DNA of 32,000 bases from Kiritimatiella glycovorans (GTDB lineage: Bacteria; Verrucomicrobiota; Kiritimatiellia; Kiritimatiellales; Kiritimatiellaceae), in assembly GCF_001017655.1 (NCBI RefSeq), contig NZ_CP010904.1, positions 990,001 through 1,022,000 of the forward strand, in the 5' to 3' direction. Below, in pieces: positions 3,563 to 26,135 of this stretch. Positions within the stretch are counted from its first letter, which is position 1. Each line of letters begins with the position of its first letter. The translations under genes were made by a program, and so were the position numbers. Under the pieces are notes generated by a model. That model did not search any database, was not told the DNA's origin, and saw nothing but the letters and a program-made list of their open reading frames with translations.

Positions 3563-3927
3563 GCATGGACCGGATCGTGATTCGGAATCTGAGGCTGCGC
3601 TGCATCATCGGCATCTATCCCGAGGAGCGCACCCACAGGCAGGATGTGGTCTTCACCATAAGCCTGGAGGCGGATCTCCGCGAGGCGGGGGCGACCGACC
3701 GCATGGAAGACACCGTCAATTATCGGACGCTCAAGAAGAAGATCGTCGAGGAAGTGGAAGCGAGCAGCTTCAACCTGATCGAACGACTCGCCCGGCACGT
3801 GGCCGATCTCTGTCTCGAGGACGAACGCGTCCGGCGTGTGACGGTATCGCTCGACAAACCCGGAGCCCTCCGCTTCGCGGACAGCGTCGCCGTCGAGATC
3901 ACGCGGGAACAGGGCGGGGCTGAATAA
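3559..3927 (+). CDS. folB: Dihydroneopterin aldolase
   Basis: Product reads MSMDRIVIRNLRLRCIIGIYPEERTHRQDVVFTISLEADL...DTVNYRTLKKKIVEEVEASSFNLIERLA...VTVSLDKPGAL, the classic FolB pattern. An ATG at 3565 is an alternative start. Confidence 0.85.
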   Translation: MSMDRIVIRNLRLRCIIGIYPEERTHRQDVVFTISLEADLREAGATDRMEDTVNYRTLKKKIVEEVEASSFNLIERLARHVADLCLEDERVRRVTVSLDKPGALRFADSVAVEITREQGGAE

Positions 3928-3973
3928 GAGTCAGAGTTAGAGTTAGAGTCAGAGTTAGAGTAAGAGTTAAGAG
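3925..3973. repeat. Hexanucleotide tandem repeat (TNAGAG)x7-8, starting on the folB stop codon
   Basis: Read directly as TAAGAG TCAGAG TTAGAG TTAGAG TCAGAG TTAGAG TAAGAG TTAAGAG. Confidence 0.9.
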
Positions 3974-4084: not shown

Positions 4085-4612
4085 ATGAGCTACTATTTTG
4101 TTGTCGTCGCGGATGGGTCACGAGCCCGTTTTTTTGAACTGCAGTCCACCGACATGCCGGAGCTGGAATCCGGACCTACGCTCGTCGAACAGACCTCGAT
4201 CTCCAACCCTGAAACCGGGAAATCCGAGGGCGAGGTGTTTGCCGACACCCGGTCCGGAAGCAACCGCGTAAGCTCCGCGGCCAATCCTCATGCTTACGAC
4301 GACCACCGGGAGCGTCACATGGAGGAGTTCGAGCGCCGTTTTGCGCGGGAGGTGGGGAAAGAGGCCGTCTCCCGGGCCGGGAAGCTGGACACCCGCTGCC
4401 TCGTGCTGGTGGCTGACCCGCGGATGCTGCATTACCTTCAGGGCGAAGTGTCATCCTTCAAAAACGGGAAGCGCGATCTGGTCGAATACGCGCGGGATCT
4501 GACCAAACTCGCGCCCGACGAGATTCATCGTCACCTCGCGAAAGATGGGCTGATCCCGGAAAAGAAACGCCCCCGCGGCGGGCCGTCCAATGTCCCGCCC
4601 GGTCGGTGGTAG
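4085..4612 (+). CDS. Host-attachment-protein family protein (Pfam Host_attach-like)
   Basis: AAGGAG lies 5 nt upstream of the ATG. The pattern VVVADGSRARFFEL ... DTRSG ... HAYDDHRERHMEEFERRFAREV ... LVLVADPRMLHYLQGE ... ARDLTKLAPDEIHRHL matches, from memory, the VADG.kARi / DrpGR / H..e..Fa..va / LvlvApp..LG.LR / KDLT signature of that family. Confidence 0.65.
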   Translation: MSYYFVVVADGSRARFFELQSTDMPELESGPTLVEQTSISNPETGKSEGEVFADTRSGSNRVSSAANPHAYDDHRERHMEEFERRFAREVGKEAVSRAGKLDTRCLVLVADPRMLHYLQGEVSSFKNGKRDLVEYARDLTKLAPDEIHRHLAKDGLIPEKKRPRGGPSNVPPGRW

Positions 4613-4677
4613 CGCGCGGCGCAGATGGGGGGCGGTTCTGACGCGTGCGGCCGCGCCCGGTCCCGGCATCCTCTCTT
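4596..4677 (+). repeat. 82-bp direct repeat, copy 1; includes the last 17 nt and stop codon of the host-attachment gene
   Basis: CGCCCGGTCGGTGGTAGCGCGCGGCGCAGATGGGGGGCGGTTCTGACGCGTGCGGCCGCGCCCGGTCCCGGCATCCTCTCTT. Matches 5058-5139 at 81 of 82 positions by hand alignment. Confidence 0.9.
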
Positions 4678-4835
4678 CCCGGCTTCAACATGGCCCGAAA
4701 ACGCGATCGCCTCCCCCGGTGAACATTGAAGTGAGTTTTGAATCAGGGTGTCCCGGCGGGAAAAAAGGTTCTTCGTGGATTTTTGTGGAGCTACTGAAAT
4801 CGTAGCGGCTGGATTAGAAATCCGCTTACGTTACC

Positions 4836-4951
4836 ACGTACGCGTACTCGTACTCAGCGAAGCGGTACTCGTACTCGAGTTTCTTAAACCGGGGGAGTGG
4901 GATCGCGCCTTCGGCGCTCCGAGTACGCGTACGAGTACGAGTAAGAGTACG
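4836..4951 (+). repeat. Nested-hairpin repeat element, module 1, copy A (GTACTC left arm, GAGTAC right arm, conserved centre)
   Basis: 4847-4943 aligns with 24982-25078, with about 6 substitutions and 2 single-nt indels. The arms are mutually complementary hexamer arrays. The centre is GGGATCGCGCCTTCGGCGCTCC. Confidence 0.85.
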
Positions 4952-4957
4952 AAAACG

Positions 4958-4998
4958 GCGGACAGCCTTCTGCTGTCCAGCAGAATCCCTGCCCTCAC
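4958..4998 (+). repeat. 41-nt repeat module 2, copy A (contains CTGCTG-TC-CAGCAG palindrome)
   Basis: GCGGACAGCCTTCTGCTGTCCAGCAGAATCCCTGCCCTCAC equals the reverse complement of 25121-25161 at 39 of 41 positions. Confidence 0.85.
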
Positions 4999-5057
4999 GC
5001 ACGGGTTCGGCGCTCCGAGTGCGATATTCCCCCGGGTGTCCCCATGTGGAACACAGG

Positions 5058-5139
5058 CGCCCGGGCGGTGGTAGCGCGCGGCGCAGATGGGGGGCGGTTC
5101 TGACGCGTGCGGCCGCGCCCGGTCCCGGCATCCTCTCTT
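5058..5139 (+). repeat. 82-bp direct repeat, copy 2; ends 61 nt upstream of the ileS start
   Basis: Identical to 4596-4677 except for one T/G difference at the eighth position. Confidence 0.9.
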
Positions 5140-5200
5140 GTCTTTGCGGGCCGGATTAACTAACGTCCTCCTTTTTCACGATAAGCCTGCGGGAGGGCGC

Positions 5201-8200
5201 GTGTTCGAACCCGTTTCAAGTAAAGTCGATTTTCCGTCGCTGGAAGAGTCGGTGCTCGCGTATTGGGATGAGCGGGACATCTTCCGGCGCTCGCTGCAGA
5301 ACCGCCGCGGTGCCGGGGAGTTCGTCTTCTATGACGGACCGCCGTTCGCCACGGGGCTGCCGCACTACGGCCACTTACTGGCCGGCACCATCAAGGACAT
5401 CGTGCCGCGTTACCAGACGATGCGCGGTCGTTACGTCGAGCGGCGTTTCGGGTGGGACTGTCACGGTCTGCCGATCGAGGCGCTCGCCCAGGAGGCGCTG
5501 GAACTGGCCGGTGCGGCGGGTATCCGCGAAAAGGGGATCGATGTCTTCAACGAGCAGTGCCGTTCGATGGTGCTGCGTTACGTCGGGGAGTGGGAGCGGA
5601 CCGTCAGGCGACTCGGGCGGTGGGTCGATTTCGAGCGCGATTACAAGACCATGGACCGTTCGTTCATGGAGACGATCTGGTGGGTCTTCCGGCAGCTCTG
5701 GGATCAGGGCCGGATCTACCGCGCACACCGGATCATGCCCTACAGCTGGAAGCTGAACACGCCCCTGTCCAATTTCGAGGCCGGCCGCAACTACCAGGAC
5801 GTTCAGGACCCCGCGATTACCGTCCGCGTGCGGCTTCACGGCGGCGGTGAACTGGAGGGGGCCTGGGCGCTGCTGTGGACGACGACCCCGTGGACGCTGC
5901 CCGGGAATCTGGCGGTGTGTGCCGGGCCGGAGATCGAATACGCGCTGGTGCGTGATGCGGAAACCCATGACCGCTATCTTCTGGCCGTCTCGCGGATCGA
6001 GGCCTACTACCCGGAGGGCGAAGGCTACGAGATCCTGGGGCGGAGGTCCGGCCGTGAGCTGGAGGGGCTGACCTACGAGCCGCTGTTCGACTATTTCGCG
6101 GACCATCCCGGTGCGTTCCGCGTGCTGACCGACGAGTTCGTCACGACGGGGGAGGGCACCGGCCTCGTGCATATGGCCCCGGCCTACGGGGAGGACGACT
6201 ACCGGATCTGCCGCAAAGCGGGGATCGATCTGGTCGATCCGCTGGACGCCGACTGTCGCTTTACCGCGGAGGTTCCGGAATACGAGGGCGAGTTCTGCAA
6301 GGACGCCGACAAGGAGATTATCCGCGCGCTGCGTCATGCCGGGAAACTCGTCCACCGCAGCACCATCCAGCACAGCTATCCCTTCTGCGAGCGCACCGAC
6401 ACGCCGCTGATCTACCGCGCGATCGAGGCCTGGTACGTGCGCGTGGAGGACCTGCGCGACCGGATGATCGCGCACAACGAAACGGTGCACTGGATGCCCG
6501 GATATGTGGGCGGGAAGCGCTTCGCCAACTGGCTCGCCGAAGCGCGCGACTGGAACATCAGCCGCAACCGCTTCTGGGGGTCCTGTATTCCCGTGTGGAT
6601 CGCCGAAGACGGTGACACGATCTGCGTGGGCTCGGTCGAGGAACTCGAATCCCTCTCCGGGCAGAAGGTCGAAGACCTCCACAAACATGTGCTCGACGAA
6701 ATCACCCTTGAACGCGACGGCAAAGTCTACCGCCGCACGCCCGAAGTCCTCGACTGCTGGTTCGAGAGCGGATCGATGCCCTACGCGCAGTGCCACTATC
6801 CCTTCGAAGAGCGTGAGCGGTTCGAGCACAATTTCCCCGCCGACTTCATCGCCGAAGGGCTGGACCAGACCCGCGGCTGGTTCTACACGCTGACCGTCCT
6901 CTCCACCGCGCTCTTCGACCGCCCGGCCTTCCGCAACGTCGTCGTCAACGGACTCGTCCTCGCCGAGGACGGGCGCAAGATGAGCAAGCGGCTCAAGAAC
7001 TATCCCGACCCGAAACATATTTTCGACACCTACGGGGCCGATGCGCTGCGCCTCTATATGATCCATTCCCCGGTGGTCAAGGCCGAGTCCCTGCGCTTTT
7101 CCGAGGAAGGCGTGAAACACGTTCTGCGCCATTTCCTCATACCCTGGTGGAACGCCTACAGTTTCTTCGTCACCTACGCCAATATCGACGGATGGACGCC
7201 GGCGCAGGCTTCGAGGGAGCGAAACAACCTGATGGACCGCTGGGTGCGCAGCGCGCAGGCCCGGCTCATGCAGGACGTCACTGCCGCGATGGACGACTAC
7301 GACCTCCAGCGGGCCGTGCGCCCCTTTGTGCATTTCATCGAGGACCTCACCAACTGGTACATCCGCCGCTCGCGCAGGCGCTTCTGGAAATCGGCCGACG
7401 ACGCGGACAAGAAGGAGGCCTACGCGGCGCTCTACGATGTGCTGCTCGACCTGTGCAGGATCGCCGCTCCGTTCGTGCCCTTCATCAGCGAGGCGATCTA
7501 CCGCAACCTGCGCACGGAGGATAGGCCCGAATCGGTGCATCTCTGCGATTTCCCCACCGCGGAACACCTTGCAAGGGACGAGCAGCTCGAAGCGCGCATG
7601 GAGGCGGTCATGAAGGCGGTCGGCATGGGGCGGCTGCTGAGGTCCGAGTATCAGGTCAAGACGCGGCAGCCGCTGCGTCGGCTGCATGTGGTCAGCGAGG
7701 ATGCGGCACTGCTGGAGAGGATGGCCGCCCTGGAATCGATTATCGCGGATGAACTCAACGTTCATGAAGTCCGCTTCGCGTCCGACTCGAGCGAGCTGGC
7801 CCGGATGCGGGTGAAGCCCAATTTCAAAAAGCTCGGCCCGGAACTGGGACCGAAGATGAAGGCCGCGGCGGCCGCGATCGGGGAACTTTCGGCGGAGGAT
7901 GCCCGGCGGCTGAATGAAGGCGGCGAGGTGGGGATCGAGCTCGACGGCGAGGAGCGCATGCTGGACGCCGACGACGTGGAGATCGAACTGATCCCCAGGG
8001 AGGGACTCGCCGTCAGCGCCGAAGGTCCGCTGCTCGTGGCGCTGGATACGACGCTCGATGACGAGCTGGTGCGGGAGGGCCTGGCGCGGGAATTCGTCCA
8101 TAAAATCCAGTTCATGCGTAAGGAACTCGATCTCGACGTCGTGCAGCGCATTGCCGTGGCCTACCGTGCCGACGACGACGTCGAAACCGCCGTCCGGGAA

Positions 8201-8353
8201 CATCTGGATTACATTCTGGAAGAGACCCTCGCCCTGGAGTGCGAGCCGGTCGAACACCGGACGGACGACATGACGGACTGGGATCTGAACGGTCACGAAT
8301 GTGCCGTCGCGGTAAAAACCGTTGTCCCCACTCCCGGCGTTGACAGTCCATAG
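5201..8353 (+). CDS. ileS: Isoleucine--tRNA ligase, type 2 (eukaryote-like) form
   Basis: Start taken at in-frame GTG 5201, 4 nt after GGGAGGG. The upstream part of the track ORF lies in repeat DNA. Motifs seen: PPFATGLPHYGHLL (HIGH), KMSKRLKN (KMSKS), WDCHGLP, WTTTPWTLP, and a CP1 editing region. About 1050 aa with no C-terminal Cys-cluster tail, consistent with type 2. Confidence 0.95.
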   Translation: MFEPVSSKVDFPSLEESVLAYWDERDIFRRSLQNRRGAGEFVFYDGPPFATGLPHYGHLLAGTIKDIVPRYQTMRGRYVERRFGWDCHGLPIEALAQEALELAGAAGIREKGIDVFNEQCRSMVLRYVGEWERTVRRLGRWVDFERDYKTMDRSFMETIWWVFRQLWDQGRIYRAHRIMPYSWKLNTPLSNFEAGRNYQDVQDPAITVRVRLHGGGELEGAWALLWTTTPWTLPGNLAVCAGPEIEYALVRDAETHDRYLLAVSRIEAYYPEGEGYEILGRRSGRELEGLTYEPLFDYFADHPGAFRVLTDEFVTTGEGTGLVHMAPAYGEDDYRICRKAGIDLVDPLDADCRFTAEVPEYEGEFCKDADKEIIRALRHAGKLVHRSTIQHSYPFCERTDTPLIYRAIEAWYVRVEDLRDRMIAHNETVHWMPGYVGGKRFANWLAEARDWNISRNRFWGSCIPVWIAEDGDTICVGSVEELESLSGQKVEDLHKHVLDEITLERDGKVYRRTPEVLDCWFESGSMPYAQCHYPFEERERFEHNFPADFIAEGLDQTRGWFYTLTVLSTALFDRPAFRNVVVNGLVLAEDGRKMSKRLKNYPDPKHIFDTYGADALRLYMIHSPVVKAESLRFSEEGVKHVLRHFLIPWWNAYSFFVTYANIDGWTPAQASRERNNLMDRWVRSAQARLMQDVTAAMDDYDLQRAVRPFVHFIEDLTNWYIRRSRRRFWKSADDADKKEAYAALYDVLLDLCRIAAPFVPFISEAIYRNLRTEDRPESVHLCDFPTAEHLARDEQLEARMEAVMKAVGMGRLLRSEYQVKTRQPLRRLHVVSEDAALLERMAALESIIADELNVHEVRFASDSSELARMRVKPNFKKLGPELGPKMKAAAAAIGELSAEDARRLNEGGEVGIELDGEERMLDADDVEIELIPREGLAVSAEGPLLVALDTTLDDELVREGLAREFVHKIQFMRKELDLDVVQRIAVAYRADDDVETAVREHLDYILEETLALECEPVEHRTDDMTDWDLNGHECAVAVKTVVPTPGVDSP

Positions 8354-24956: not shown

Positions 24957-25080
24957 GGAAACGGGGTCTAACCCCCGCAAGCTCGTACTCAGCGAAGTGG
25001 TACTCGTACTCGAATTCCTTGAATCGGGGGATGGGATCGCGCCTTCGGCGCTCCGGGTACGCGTACCGAGTACGAGTACG
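24957..25080 (+). repeat. Nested-hairpin repeat element, module 1, copy B, with left flank GAAACGGGGTCTAACC
   Basis: 24982-25078 aligns to 4847-4943. The left flank 24957-24982 resembles 26190-26215. Confidence 0.85.
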
Positions 25081-25120: not shown

Positions 25121-25161
25121 GTGAGGGTAGGGATTCTGCTGGACAGCAGAAGGCCGTCCGC
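25121..25161 (-). repeat. 41-nt repeat module 2, copy B, inverted relative to copy A
   Basis: GTGAGGGTAGGGATTCTGCTGGACAGCAGAAGGCCGTCCGC is the reverse complement of 4958-4998 with 2 mismatches. Confidence 0.85.
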
Positions 25162-25436: not shown

Positions 25437-25575
25437 TTTGTGGTGAATCCCCATCCCGTCTCTTCCCCGAACGGCTCCGCCACAAAAATCTGCGAAGAAC
25501 CGAAAGACTGGCTAATATTGTATTCGGACAGCAGAATGAGATTGACGTCAGCGGGTCGAGTAGTAGCATGGTGGT

Positions 25576-25806
25576 ATGAAAGTCAAGACATCCATCACAC
25601 TGTCGGGCGAGGTGCTTGGTATGATTGACAAGCACCACGCGGAATTCCGGAGTCGATCGGAGTTTCTCGAACGCGCCGCAAGGGCCTTCCTGGCGCACCT
25701 CGCTAAAACAGAAGCTGAGCGCCGTGATCTGGAGATCATCAACCGGAATGCCGACGAGCTGAACGCGGAGGCGGAGGACGTGCTGGCCTACCAGGTGGCG
25801 CTGTGA
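25576..25806 (+). CDS. Ribbon-helix-helix (CopG-like) antitoxin
   Basis: 76 aa. [39 protein letters not shown] is a typical RHH N-terminus, followed by an acidic C-terminal tail. GTGA overlap with the downstream MazF/PemK-family toxin gene. Confidence 0.75.
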
Positions 25807-26135
25807 GGCGCGGCGAACTCTATCGAGTCAAGCGCCCCTCCACCCGCGATCCCCGCAGGTTCCGCATCTTTGCCGTGGTAAGCCGACAAGTGCTGATCGA
25901 GTCACGGTTCTCAACGGTCATCTGCGCCCCGGTCTACACAGCGTACGAGGGGCTCACGACGCAAGTGCCCGTCGGTACGGATGAAGGGATGAAGCACGAC
26001 TGCGGCATCCATTGCGACGAACTCGTGAGCATCCCGAAAGCCATGCTGACCGACTTCGTCAGCACGCTTCCTCGGGAGAAAATTCTCCGATTGGACGAGG
26101 CGCTGAGAACCGCACTCGAACTTCACAACGACTGA
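25803..26135 (+). CDS. mazF: MazF/PemK-family type II toxin (endoribonuclease)
   Basis: 110 aa. The product reads [12 protein letters not shown]...[17 protein letters not shown]...VICAPVYT...[28 protein letters not shown], matching the RGdi..v...P.vvvS...n...v.v.P.T...dqi.tvdk pattern. Confidence 0.8.

Follow-up and report, generated by a model that had tools for sequence, protein, structure and literature searches.

What is the palindromic element, built from GTACTC hexamers facing GAGTAC hexamers, that occurs twice in a 32,000-nucleotide (nt) stretch of Kiritimatiella glycovorans DNA (NZ_CP010904.1, positions 990,001 to 1,022,000, forward strand; hereafter the window)? An initial annotation of this DNA had placed two copies in the same orientation at 4847-4943 and 24982-25078 and had read in them selection on a folded RNA or single-stranded DNA (ssDNA) structure. 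Both copies are present, with slightly wider limits (copies A and B; Table 1), and on the evidence of their sequences they belong to a family of repeats dispersed over the genomes of many bacteria. We favour, with a probability of roughly 55%, the reading that the element is a strand-symmetric, selfish, non-autonomous DNA repeat of the REP/BIME/REPIN or MITE kind, read through its hexamer iterons and through mini-hairpins formed in ssDNA.

The GTACTC-array repeat family and its hosts

Further copies, whose absence would have spoken against the initial annotation, are plentiful. A search pattern specifying only the arms, GTACTCGTACTCG-N40-70-CGAGTACGAGTA, matched at least 120 loci in species-representative genomes, where its 25 specified bases lead one to expect about 0.03 chance matches in 596 Gb; the pattern is biased in favour of arms that have two or more perfect units and lie 40-70 nt apart. 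The loci listed contain 163 array clusters. Among them, many genomes contribute 3-10 loci each and many 8-kb loci hold at least two elements or tandem arrays. Their hosts are mostly Planctomycetota, including the isolates Ca. Laterigemmans baculatus, Roseimaritima sediminicola and Neorhodopirellula pilleata, and further comprise Verrucomicrobiota (Limisphaerales, Opitutaceae), several Desulfobacterota-type genomes (contigs of 100-500 kb), Anaerolineae, Acidobacteriota, Gemmatimonadota, Chthonomonadia, Rhodothermaceae and a Melioribacteraceae contig of 41% GC, some loci being labelled Bacteroidota-type. It is unusual that the same 6-nt iteron, polarity and hairpin insertion point recur in at least eight phylum-level groups, the hexamer staying constant across hosts of 41% to 71% GC. 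Viral contigs yielded one instance among 2.9 million, and plasmids gave no match in a search whose low-complexity filter may have masked some. A sample of about 100 kb from five other Kiritimatiellales contained no element, so that the distribution is patchy even within this group.

A complete element reads ..TC (GTACTC)2-3, A-mini-hairpin-G, (GTACTC)2-3 GA, centre, TC (GAGTAC)2-3, C-mini-hairpin-T, (GAGTAC)2-3 GA.., with a partial unit (..TC or GA..) at its flanks. Two to three hexamers separate the mini-hairpin from the centre, which has a median length of 35 nt, and the gap from the GTACTC to the GAGTAC array measures about 10-70 nt. The arrangement is polar: the GTACTC array comes first and the GAGTAC array second in 127 clusters, and none shows the reverse order alone. 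The number of hexamer units differs between copies. Among 95 elements with both neighbouring genes called, the inserted hairpin is found in both arms in 15, in one arm in 39 and in neither in 41; the two window copies are of the one-armed type, the left arm alone bearing the insert.

An arm covariance model trained only on arm units from other genomes recovers the left arms of both window copies (A, 4845-4875, 55.9 bits, E = 9e-19; B, 24980-25010, 42.2 bits, E = 9e-14) and, on the minus strand, their hairpin-less right arms (for A, 4934-4955 at 18.8 bits, with the hairpin positions deleted); no other site of the window is matched. Over 35 nt (GTACTCGTACTCAGCGAAGCGGTACTCGTACTCGA), copy A has exactly the sequence of Planctomycetota copies. 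Sharing arm polarity, inserted hairpin, intergenic site and a lineage-specific centre with the other loci, A and B are members of this GTACTC-array palindromic repeat family.

The two copies are about 91% identical, where none would be expected by chance, and GTACTC-type dodecamers, of which the window holds 15 against 1.25 expected, cluster only at A and B. Their centres share 89% identity and have no match at other family loci. The GCGCC-TTC-GGCGC centre that had been described as invariant proves to be so: both copies contain the 22-mer GGGATCGCGCCTTCGGCGCTCC unchanged, and no other window site matches it even with up to 3 mismatches (0.00 expected from shuffles). An exact search for this 22-mer returned no match in species-representative genomes, one unrelated match in metagenomes (locus L001) and none in viral contigs, and the invariant centre is accordingly private to K. 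glycovorans. Genome-specific amplification is a property of the family as a whole, since a centre at least 80% identical to another of the same genome was found in 19 of 61 elements and to one of a different genome in 0. Centres common to the copies of one genome imply that the whole unit, arms and centre together, has been copied within that genome.

Hairpins conserved as structure

The strongest structural signal of the element is the mini-hairpin inserted in its arms, which is conserved as structure while its sequence varies. The insertion point, CTCA/GGTAC (between ...TACTCA and GGTACTC...), is constant across phyla. Over 142 units, Watson-Crick pairing is found at 348 of 367 nested positions (95%), compared with 35% in shuffled inserts; for the 35 distinct 7-nt units, 98.6% of cells are paired and 15 cells show change on both sides, a result that 0 of 500 shuffles reach. 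Stems are as diverse as GC/GC, AT/AT, GT/AC, GCCC/GGGC and GTCCGCC/GGCGGAC. The apex, in contrast to this variety, has a polarity of its own, being Y-GN(N)A-R on the GTACTC-reading strand in 90 of 140 inserts (64%) and of the reverse-complement type in 2. Exact matches to GCGNAGC or GCGNNAGC number 31, and the published mini-hairpins matched exactly include GCGAAGC, GCGCAGC, GCGTTAGC and GCGATAGC, in which a GNA loop is closed by a C-G pair. The initial annotation had not singled out the GCGAAGC hairpin in the left arm and had based its structural reading on a 4-bp hairpin in the centre; the left-arm hairpin, which covaries across 140 arm units from other genomes, carries the stronger signal.

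Mini-hairpins of this kind are very stable as DNA: d(GCGAAGC) melts at 76.5 C, GCGTTAGC and GCGATAGC melt at about 70 C, and the related octamer r(GCGAAAGC) melts as RNA at 39 C as against 76.5 C as DNA (PMC13037366). The types d(GCGNAGC) and d(GCGNNAGC) are found at ssDNA priming sites (PMC13037366; PMC3201870), and occurrences are on record at primase-dependent origins (phages G4, St-1 and alpha3), at ssiA of RSF1010 and at the hairpin promoters of phage N4 (PMC13037366).

In each of the 20 elements that have one hairpin per arm, the inserts are unlike and never mirror copies of each other. The inserts of the two arms therefore cannot pair mutually, so each folds within its own arm, which gives the folded element a three-way or four-way junction. 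As read off the list, 14 of these 20 elements combine an RTGMAAY-type hairpin with one of the GC...GC type, and one Planctomycetota genome has an additional flanking module, GAAGCCAAAATAGCGCAACT, whose neighbour is invariably the same type of arm. The pairing of hairpin types and the arm-specific module together indicate that the two ends of the element are not equivalent.

The long arms are constrained in a different manner. In their innermost 12 nt, 70 (left) and 72 (right) of 1476 positions deviate from the consensus; the deviations coincide at 6 positions, 3 of them complementary, where 3.4 both-side deviations would be expected if the arms were independent. As there is no excess of compensatory change, the arms appear to be held by sequence constraint and not by covariation. 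Centres across the family mostly fold no better than their shuffled counterparts (median fold z-score -0.04; 7% below -2), and those of different genomes have no sequence in common.

Arms that are conserved by sequence without covariation, together with a conserved hexamer, polarity and 2-3-unit spacing, would also be compatible with a double-stranded-DNA operator array, in which the hexamers are iterons for a regulator or nucleoid protein and the hairpin potential is a by-product of having inverted arrays. Recognition of duplex DNA would leave unexplained, however, why the mini-hairpins vary in sequence yet keep both their pairing and their polar GNA loop. The neighbouring genes moreover form no common regulon, and a single regulator common to more than eight phyla, with patchy presence, is unlikely, so we consider an operator array very improbable.

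We give hardly any credence to a neutral origin, in which slippage and template switching generate microsatellites and quasi-palindromes and hairpin-templated mutation accounts for the compensatory changes seen in the window. Such an origin would be in keeping with the variable number of units among copies, with a solitary (GAGTYA)7 array in the window and with an enrichment of flanking direct repeats and tandem duplications (direct repeats of at least 20 nt at 13 of about 110 elements versus 4 of 242 controls). It does not account for the recurrence of the hexamer, the polarity, the insertion point and the loop type across phyla, nor for centres that are copied along with their arms, and the different hairpins of the two arms cannot have been templated from each other. 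The enriched direct repeats are themselves tandem composite units or other dispersed repeats. The solitary array lies directly after the FolB stop codon and resembles the right-arm unit (GAGTAC/GAGTAA); no inverted partner for it was found in the whole window.

The 4-bp hairpin of the centre, GTTT-CTT-AAAC in copy A and ATTC-CTT-GAAT in copy B, had been put forward because 4 of about 6 substitutions between the copies seemed to be compensatory. Both stem differences, at positions 1/11 and 4/8, are Watson-Crick compensatory, and four substitutions do form these two pairs; over 4847-4943, the total is 7 substitutions, together with 2 single-base indels. If 7 substitutions, mostly transitions, are scattered at random, the probability that two compensatory pairs appear in some local stem of 4 bp or more is P = 0.0026, from which it follows that the pattern is not due to chance under independent substitution; alternatively, it may stem from hairpin-templated mutation or from two distinct master copies as ancestors. 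Folding with DNA parameters predicts the hairpin in the full-element fold of B and in the centre-only fold of A, and, when the centre of B is folded by itself, three of the four pairs. It is missing from the RNA minimum-energy folds of either copy and has no counterpart in other family members. The compensatory evidence, drawn from a comparison of two sequences, is thus to be taken as lineage-specific, and the hairpin fits the family habit of structure-conserved small hairpins without defining the element. Selection on a folded structure accordingly retains its support from pairs that are improbable by chance (P about 0.003); what does not carry over is the even weight given to RNA and ssDNA, as DNA is favoured, and the strongest structural signal lies elsewhere.

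DNA or RNA, and the genomic setting

Whole elements fold well below shuffles, in line with the nested hairpin potential noted at the outset. As RNA, copy A reaches -55.0 kcal/mol (z = -4.0) and copy B -52.2 kcal/mol (z = -3.5), and with DNA parameters the z-scores are -3.0 and -2.4. The very stable RNA fold, the position of copy A in the ileS 5' region and the two compensatory pairs of the central hairpin could be explained by a structured RNA, the interpretation nearest to that of the initial annotation, whether as a non-coding RNA (ncRNA), as an mRNA-stabilising or processing hairpin or as a cis-regulator of the downstream gene. There is precedent in REP elements, which stabilise mRNA 3' ends. 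Against this, the family shows no transcript-strand bias: for 57 elements that lie between co-directional genes, sense and antisense are alike in minimum free energy (-53.10 and -53.12 kcal/mol) and in G-U pairs (140 versus 144; p = 0.92). The preferred GNA loops are of the DNA-stable type and, as one arm is the inverse of the other, the two arms present them on opposite strands, for which a single transcript is not an explanation. The neighbouring genes are unrelated and the flanking orientations (71 tandem, 28 divergent, 22 convergent) are distributed as in the background (338, 134, 125). Elements lie about as far from gene 3' ends as from gene starts, and copy B lies between divergent genes. 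Since T-tract, terminator and promoter signals and any Rfam match are missing as well, we regard a structured RNA as improbable, and the evidence favours DNA over RNA.

Several more specific assignments were rejected. An intrinsic terminator is contradicted by the lack of a T-run (GAAAA stands on the 3' side, and any T-runs lie 5' of the element) and of a preference for gene 3' ends. A promoter role was dismissed since the scan gave no signal at elements; around A and B, no promoter-like or terminator-like signals beyond chance were detected by scanning. VLVL, EYEY and STST peptides do turn up in the open reading frame (ORF) lists, as had been pointed out. A coding function was discarded all the same, because the hairpin variation is compensatory at the nucleotide level and alters the would-be peptide (RFA, HFI, RDA and others) and because the element is two-fold symmetric. 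The Rhodopirellula-1 motif differs in its conserved AACNA..GAUGAAC...GUUAUC..UUCGUU base with a bulged hairpin (Stockholm alignment, PMC2864571 supplement), and integron attC sites are excluded by the missing R''/L''...L'/R' core sites (RYYYAAC ... GTTRRRY) and by neighbours that are housekeeping genes and not cassettes. Rfam 15 produced 0 matches in the window at the gathering threshold, the best permissive match being a 15-nt generic hairpin of Acido-Lenti-1 (RF01687; 12.6 bits, E = 3.1), and a canonical family member drew only weak microRNA-precursor matches from Rfam. The earlier failure to assign a REP, MITE or ncRNA family is borne out, as no tested Rfam, REP or MITE family covers the element.

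Elements are intergenic and show no gene association. Among 139 flanking ORFs no Pfam family appears more than twice, and all-against-all ORF clustering over the loci returned only large, unrelated housekeeping families. Both window copies likewise sit between unrelated housekeeping genes. Copy B occupies a gap of about 900 nt with dctP (minus strand) on one side and a toxin-antitoxin pair (RHH and PemK/MazF) on the other, these genes being divergent; effects on this divergent region and on the ileS 5' region next to copy A are probably incidental.

A signal used by the host in ssDNA or cruciform form would likewise involve folded DNA. It might act in priming or single-strand initiation, in replication restart, or as a platform for gyrase, IHF or a nucleoid protein, with the inverted arms presenting the signal on either strand. 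A platform role for gyrase, IHF or nucleoid proteins has been proposed for E. coli BIMEs. The two-fold symmetry of the element, the constancy of its hexamer over so wide a GC range and the occurrence of the same mini-hairpin type at primase-dependent origins, ssiA and N4 promoters all agree with a host signal, as does a distant pair of Planctomycetota loci with the element just 3' of homologous genes. On the other hand, the distribution is patchy even in Kiritimatiellales, and genome-specific amplified centres and tandem arrays are typical of selfish spread. Considering also that the hairpin strand shows no bias to local GC skew and that the element keeps no conserved position relative to genes, we think a host signal unlikely. 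In the Planctomycetota pair just mentioned, L021 (1501-1599) and L073 (7782-7874), the element lies just downstream of genes with about 50% amino-acid identity, which could reflect an old conserved insertion or repeated targeting of one site.

Conserved hexamers, a hairpin conserved in structure only, non-equivalent ends, a free centre and genome-specific amplification are, taken together, expected of a non-autonomous element that is read on folded DNA. We therefore return to the selfish, non-autonomous repeat as the reading we prefer. Under such a scheme, the whole unit of arms and lineage-specific centre would be amplified within a genome. Once the DNA is single-stranded or extruded, the arms would pair with each other to give a branched hairpin of about -50 kcal/mol, and a trans-acting protein might recognise the duplex hexamer array together with the protruding mini-hairpin or mini-hairpins and then copy or move the element.

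Certain observations count against this scheme. Neither Pfam on the 139 flanking ORFs nor ORF clustering over the at least 120 loci turned up a transposase, HUH or other candidate enzyme gene beside the elements. Flanks showed no conserved target-site duplication, and no empty site was found among relatives, none of which is close to K. glycovorans, the next IleRS being only 72% identical. Mini-hairpin strand showed no bias when compared with local GC skew, a noisy proxy for the replication strand, and the K. glycovorans window holds only two copies and one fragment. The preference for ssDNA over RNA is drawn from loop chemistry and the missing strand bias, the context statistics come from crude longest-ORF gene calls, and the host labels are those given by depositors to metagenome-assembled genomes, among which mis-binned contigs are possible. 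Beyond these points, about 1 Mb of loci contained no left-to-right arm pair bracketing a transposase.

Intergenic regions that hold the element also collect other repeats. Copy A lies in a 380-nt insert flanked by an 82-nt direct repeat (99% identical), whose first copy takes in the final 17 nt of the Host_attach coding sequence and whose second copy falls in the ileS 5' region; such an X-Y-X arrangement has the look of a local duplication surrounding repeat DNA that was inserted there. A comparable case is locus L064 of Fuerstiella, where an element stands between exact 82-nt direct repeats (2162-2243 and 2638-2719) that are copies of another palindromic repeat with the core CCTGGGGTGCGCC...GGCGACCCCAGG, and where the intergenic regions gather several repeat families. 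We rejected a long target-site duplication as the explanation of the 82-nt repeats around copy A, given that the look-alike flanks of L064 are just another dispersed repeat. In the window, both GTACTC elements are adjoined, in opposite relative orientation, by a second dispersed repeat (GCGGACAGCCTTCTGCTGTCCAGCAGAATCCCTGCCCTCAC), which has a hairpin of its own (GGACAGC/GCTGTCC) and whose copies are 95% identical. The shortened third copy of the element falls just past it, which suggests nested insertions or partial deletion. In addition, a 22-nt piece is common to both intergenic regions in inverted form (91% identical, E about 0.001-0.004).

Composite arrangements occur in other hosts as well. 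In Limisphaerales/Verrucomicrobia (L111, 5040-5900; L058, 1-950; L093, 5340-5700), GTACTC elements alternate with Acido-Lenti-1 (RF01687, 52-57 bits), and the two together form tandem composite units of about 322 nt. Acido-Lenti-1 may itself be part of a repeat or mobile-DNA system and not a stand-alone small RNA.

Table 1 Features of the two GTACTC elements and their surroundings in the 32,000-nt window
Feature	Position	Strand	Sequence	Basis or remark
Copy A, complete element	~4838-4950	+		Arms, side mini-hairpin and centre; sequence, fold
Copy A, outer left hexamer array	4838-4855	+	GTACGC GTACTC GTACTC	Sequence
Copy A, side mini-hairpin	4856-4864	+	A-GCGAAGC-G	Fits published DNA consensus GCGNAGC; family-defining feature
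Copy A, inner left array	4865-4878	+	GTACTC GTACTC + GA	Family geometry: 2-3 inner units, then GA
Copy A, central 4-bp hairpin	4879-4889	+	GTTT-CTT-AAAC	Sequence, DNA-parameter fold
Copy A, invariant centre	4899-4920	+	GGGATCGCGCCTTCGGCGCTCC	Hairpin GCGCC (4905-4909) / TTC / GGCGC (4913-4917)
Copy A, right arm	4921-4950	+	GAGTAC GCGTAC GAGTAC GAGTAA GAGTAC	Without side hairpin; sequence
Copy B, complete element	~24981-25079	+		Same orientation as copy A
Copy B, left-arm hairpin	24991-24999	+	A-GCGAAGT-G	Follows a single outer unit; G-T wobble
Copy B, inner left array	25000-25013	+	GTACTC GTACTC GA	
Copy B, central hairpin	25014-25024	+	ATTC-CTT-GAAT	
Copy B, invariant centre	25033-25054	+	GGGATCGCGCCTTCGGCGCTCC	
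Copy B, right arm	25055-25079	+	GGGTAC GCGTAC C GAGTAC GAGTAC	
Shortened third copy	5006-5023	+	TTCGGCGCTCCGAGTGCG	Right half of centre hairpin and first right-arm unit; 17/18 bases match
Solitary array	3925-3969		(GAGTYA)7	
Host_attach/baeRF-like gene	4085-4612			Copy A lies between this gene and ileS
82-nt direct repeat, two copies	4596-4677; 5058-5139			
Insert between the 82-nt repeats	4678-5057			Contains copy A
22-nt piece, two copies	4767-4788; 25480-25501			Inverted
Second dispersed repeat, first copy	4958-4998	+	GCGGACAGCCTTCTGCTGTCCAGCAGAATCCCTGCCCTCAC	
Second dispersed repeat, second copy	25121-25161	-		
ileS (IleRS)	5087-8353			Copy A in its 5' region
Type II toxin-antitoxin pair	25576-26135			RHH-type antitoxin candidate (76 aa, no Pfam hit), 4-nt overlap with PemK/MazF-like toxin (110 aa)

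Comparison with known repeats and hairpin origins

Most of what is known of dispersed palindromic repeats (REP, BIME, REPIN, MITE) comes from Proteobacteria, and each family is lineage-specific. The GTACTC-array family is apparently uncatalogued: it is absent from Rfam, and the literature searched by literal sequence or keyword contained no description of it. In common with REP, BIME and REPIN repeats it consists of short, intergenic, multi-copy palindromic units with a variable linker or centre and a conserved short sequence at the foot of a structure-conserved hairpin, and it forms genome-specific families. Like REPINs, its inverted doublets are able to form one long hairpin, and like BIMEs, a doublet may unite two different unit types, as in the 14 of 20 two-hairpin elements described above. 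The differences are equally clear. The foot is GTACTC-A and not a GTAG or CGTC tag (tag definition PMC3733652, PMC6006769 Table S1), the hairpin spans only 7-16 nt and is set in tandem hexamer arrays that REPs do not have, and the arm sequence is common to several phyla whereas REP sequences are lineage-specific. In addition, RAYT genes (TnpA_REP, HUH-Y1) are typically flanked by REPs, and no RAYT gene was found beside any of the at least 120 loci among flanking ORFs and ORF clusters. The element works like a REPIN or BIME, yet by its sequence it does not belong to either.

Class 3 TnpA-Y1 'REPtron-like' systems have been described from Planctomycetes, Acidobacteria and Proteobacteria, with about 600 atypical structures in Solibacter usitatus (PMC6006769). 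They resemble the present case in host taxa and in high-copy secondary structures, and they represent a plausible kind of ssDNA partner enzyme. Their hairpins, such as CCGAGCCGCGACCGTAAGGGAGCGGA, stand on a CnGA foot and lack GTACTC arrays (PMC6006769 Table S1). The structures themselves were rejected as a match, the CnGA foot and the GCCGCGACC-GTNA-GGGAGCGG hairpin type not being present in the element and the sequences being unrelated (PMC6006769 Table S1).

MITEs such as Correia/NEMIS, RUP and ERIC provide a second parallel, since they are non-autonomous, about 60-150 bp long, and carry terminal inverted repeats around a variable core; they are also intergenic, multi-copy and amplified within a genome. 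Here, by contrast, the inverted repeats are 6-nt arrays of variable number, each with an internal covarying hairpin, no target-site duplication was detected, and about 1 Mb of loci held no parent insertion sequence with the same ends.

Hairpins recognised by HUH Rep proteins are found in the inverted terminal repeat of adeno-associated virus (AAV), where the stem carries GAGC tetramers, and at the origins of geminiviruses and circoviruses. By analogy only, the GTACTC element would share with these a fold-back stem with short tandem repeats and protruding hairpins in which structure matters; its side hairpins differ in lying mid-stem and not at the tip, and the element is chromosomal and dispersed, with no associated Rep gene. 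The stable d(GCGNAGC) hairpins, for their part, are single hairpins in phage and plasmid origins, whereas the GTACTC element incorporates the hairpin as one module of a repeat dispersed in chromosomes. If the element does use it in vivo, this would be a natural genome-scale case of the very stable d(GCGNAGC) hairpin at work.

Irrespective of mechanism, the elements yield spurious ORFs (EYEY, STST, VLVL) and should be masked when genomes of Planctomycetes, Verrucomicrobia and Kiritimatiellota are annotated. As to kind, the REP/BIME/REPIN repeats with their HUH-Y1 enzymes seem on balance the nearest relatives, with the Rep-recognised hairpin origins as a further analogy. More tentatively, the iteron arrays and polar mini-hairpins might be the recognition ends of an unrecognised cross-phylum ssDNA system, served by a new family of mobilising enzyme or by host priming or restart, in which case they would constitute a new class of bacterial DNA element and not one more REP or MITE. 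A system of this type would predict a conserved protein that reads hexamer arrays together with the GNA hairpin, possibly a new HUH-type or other ssDNA enzyme.

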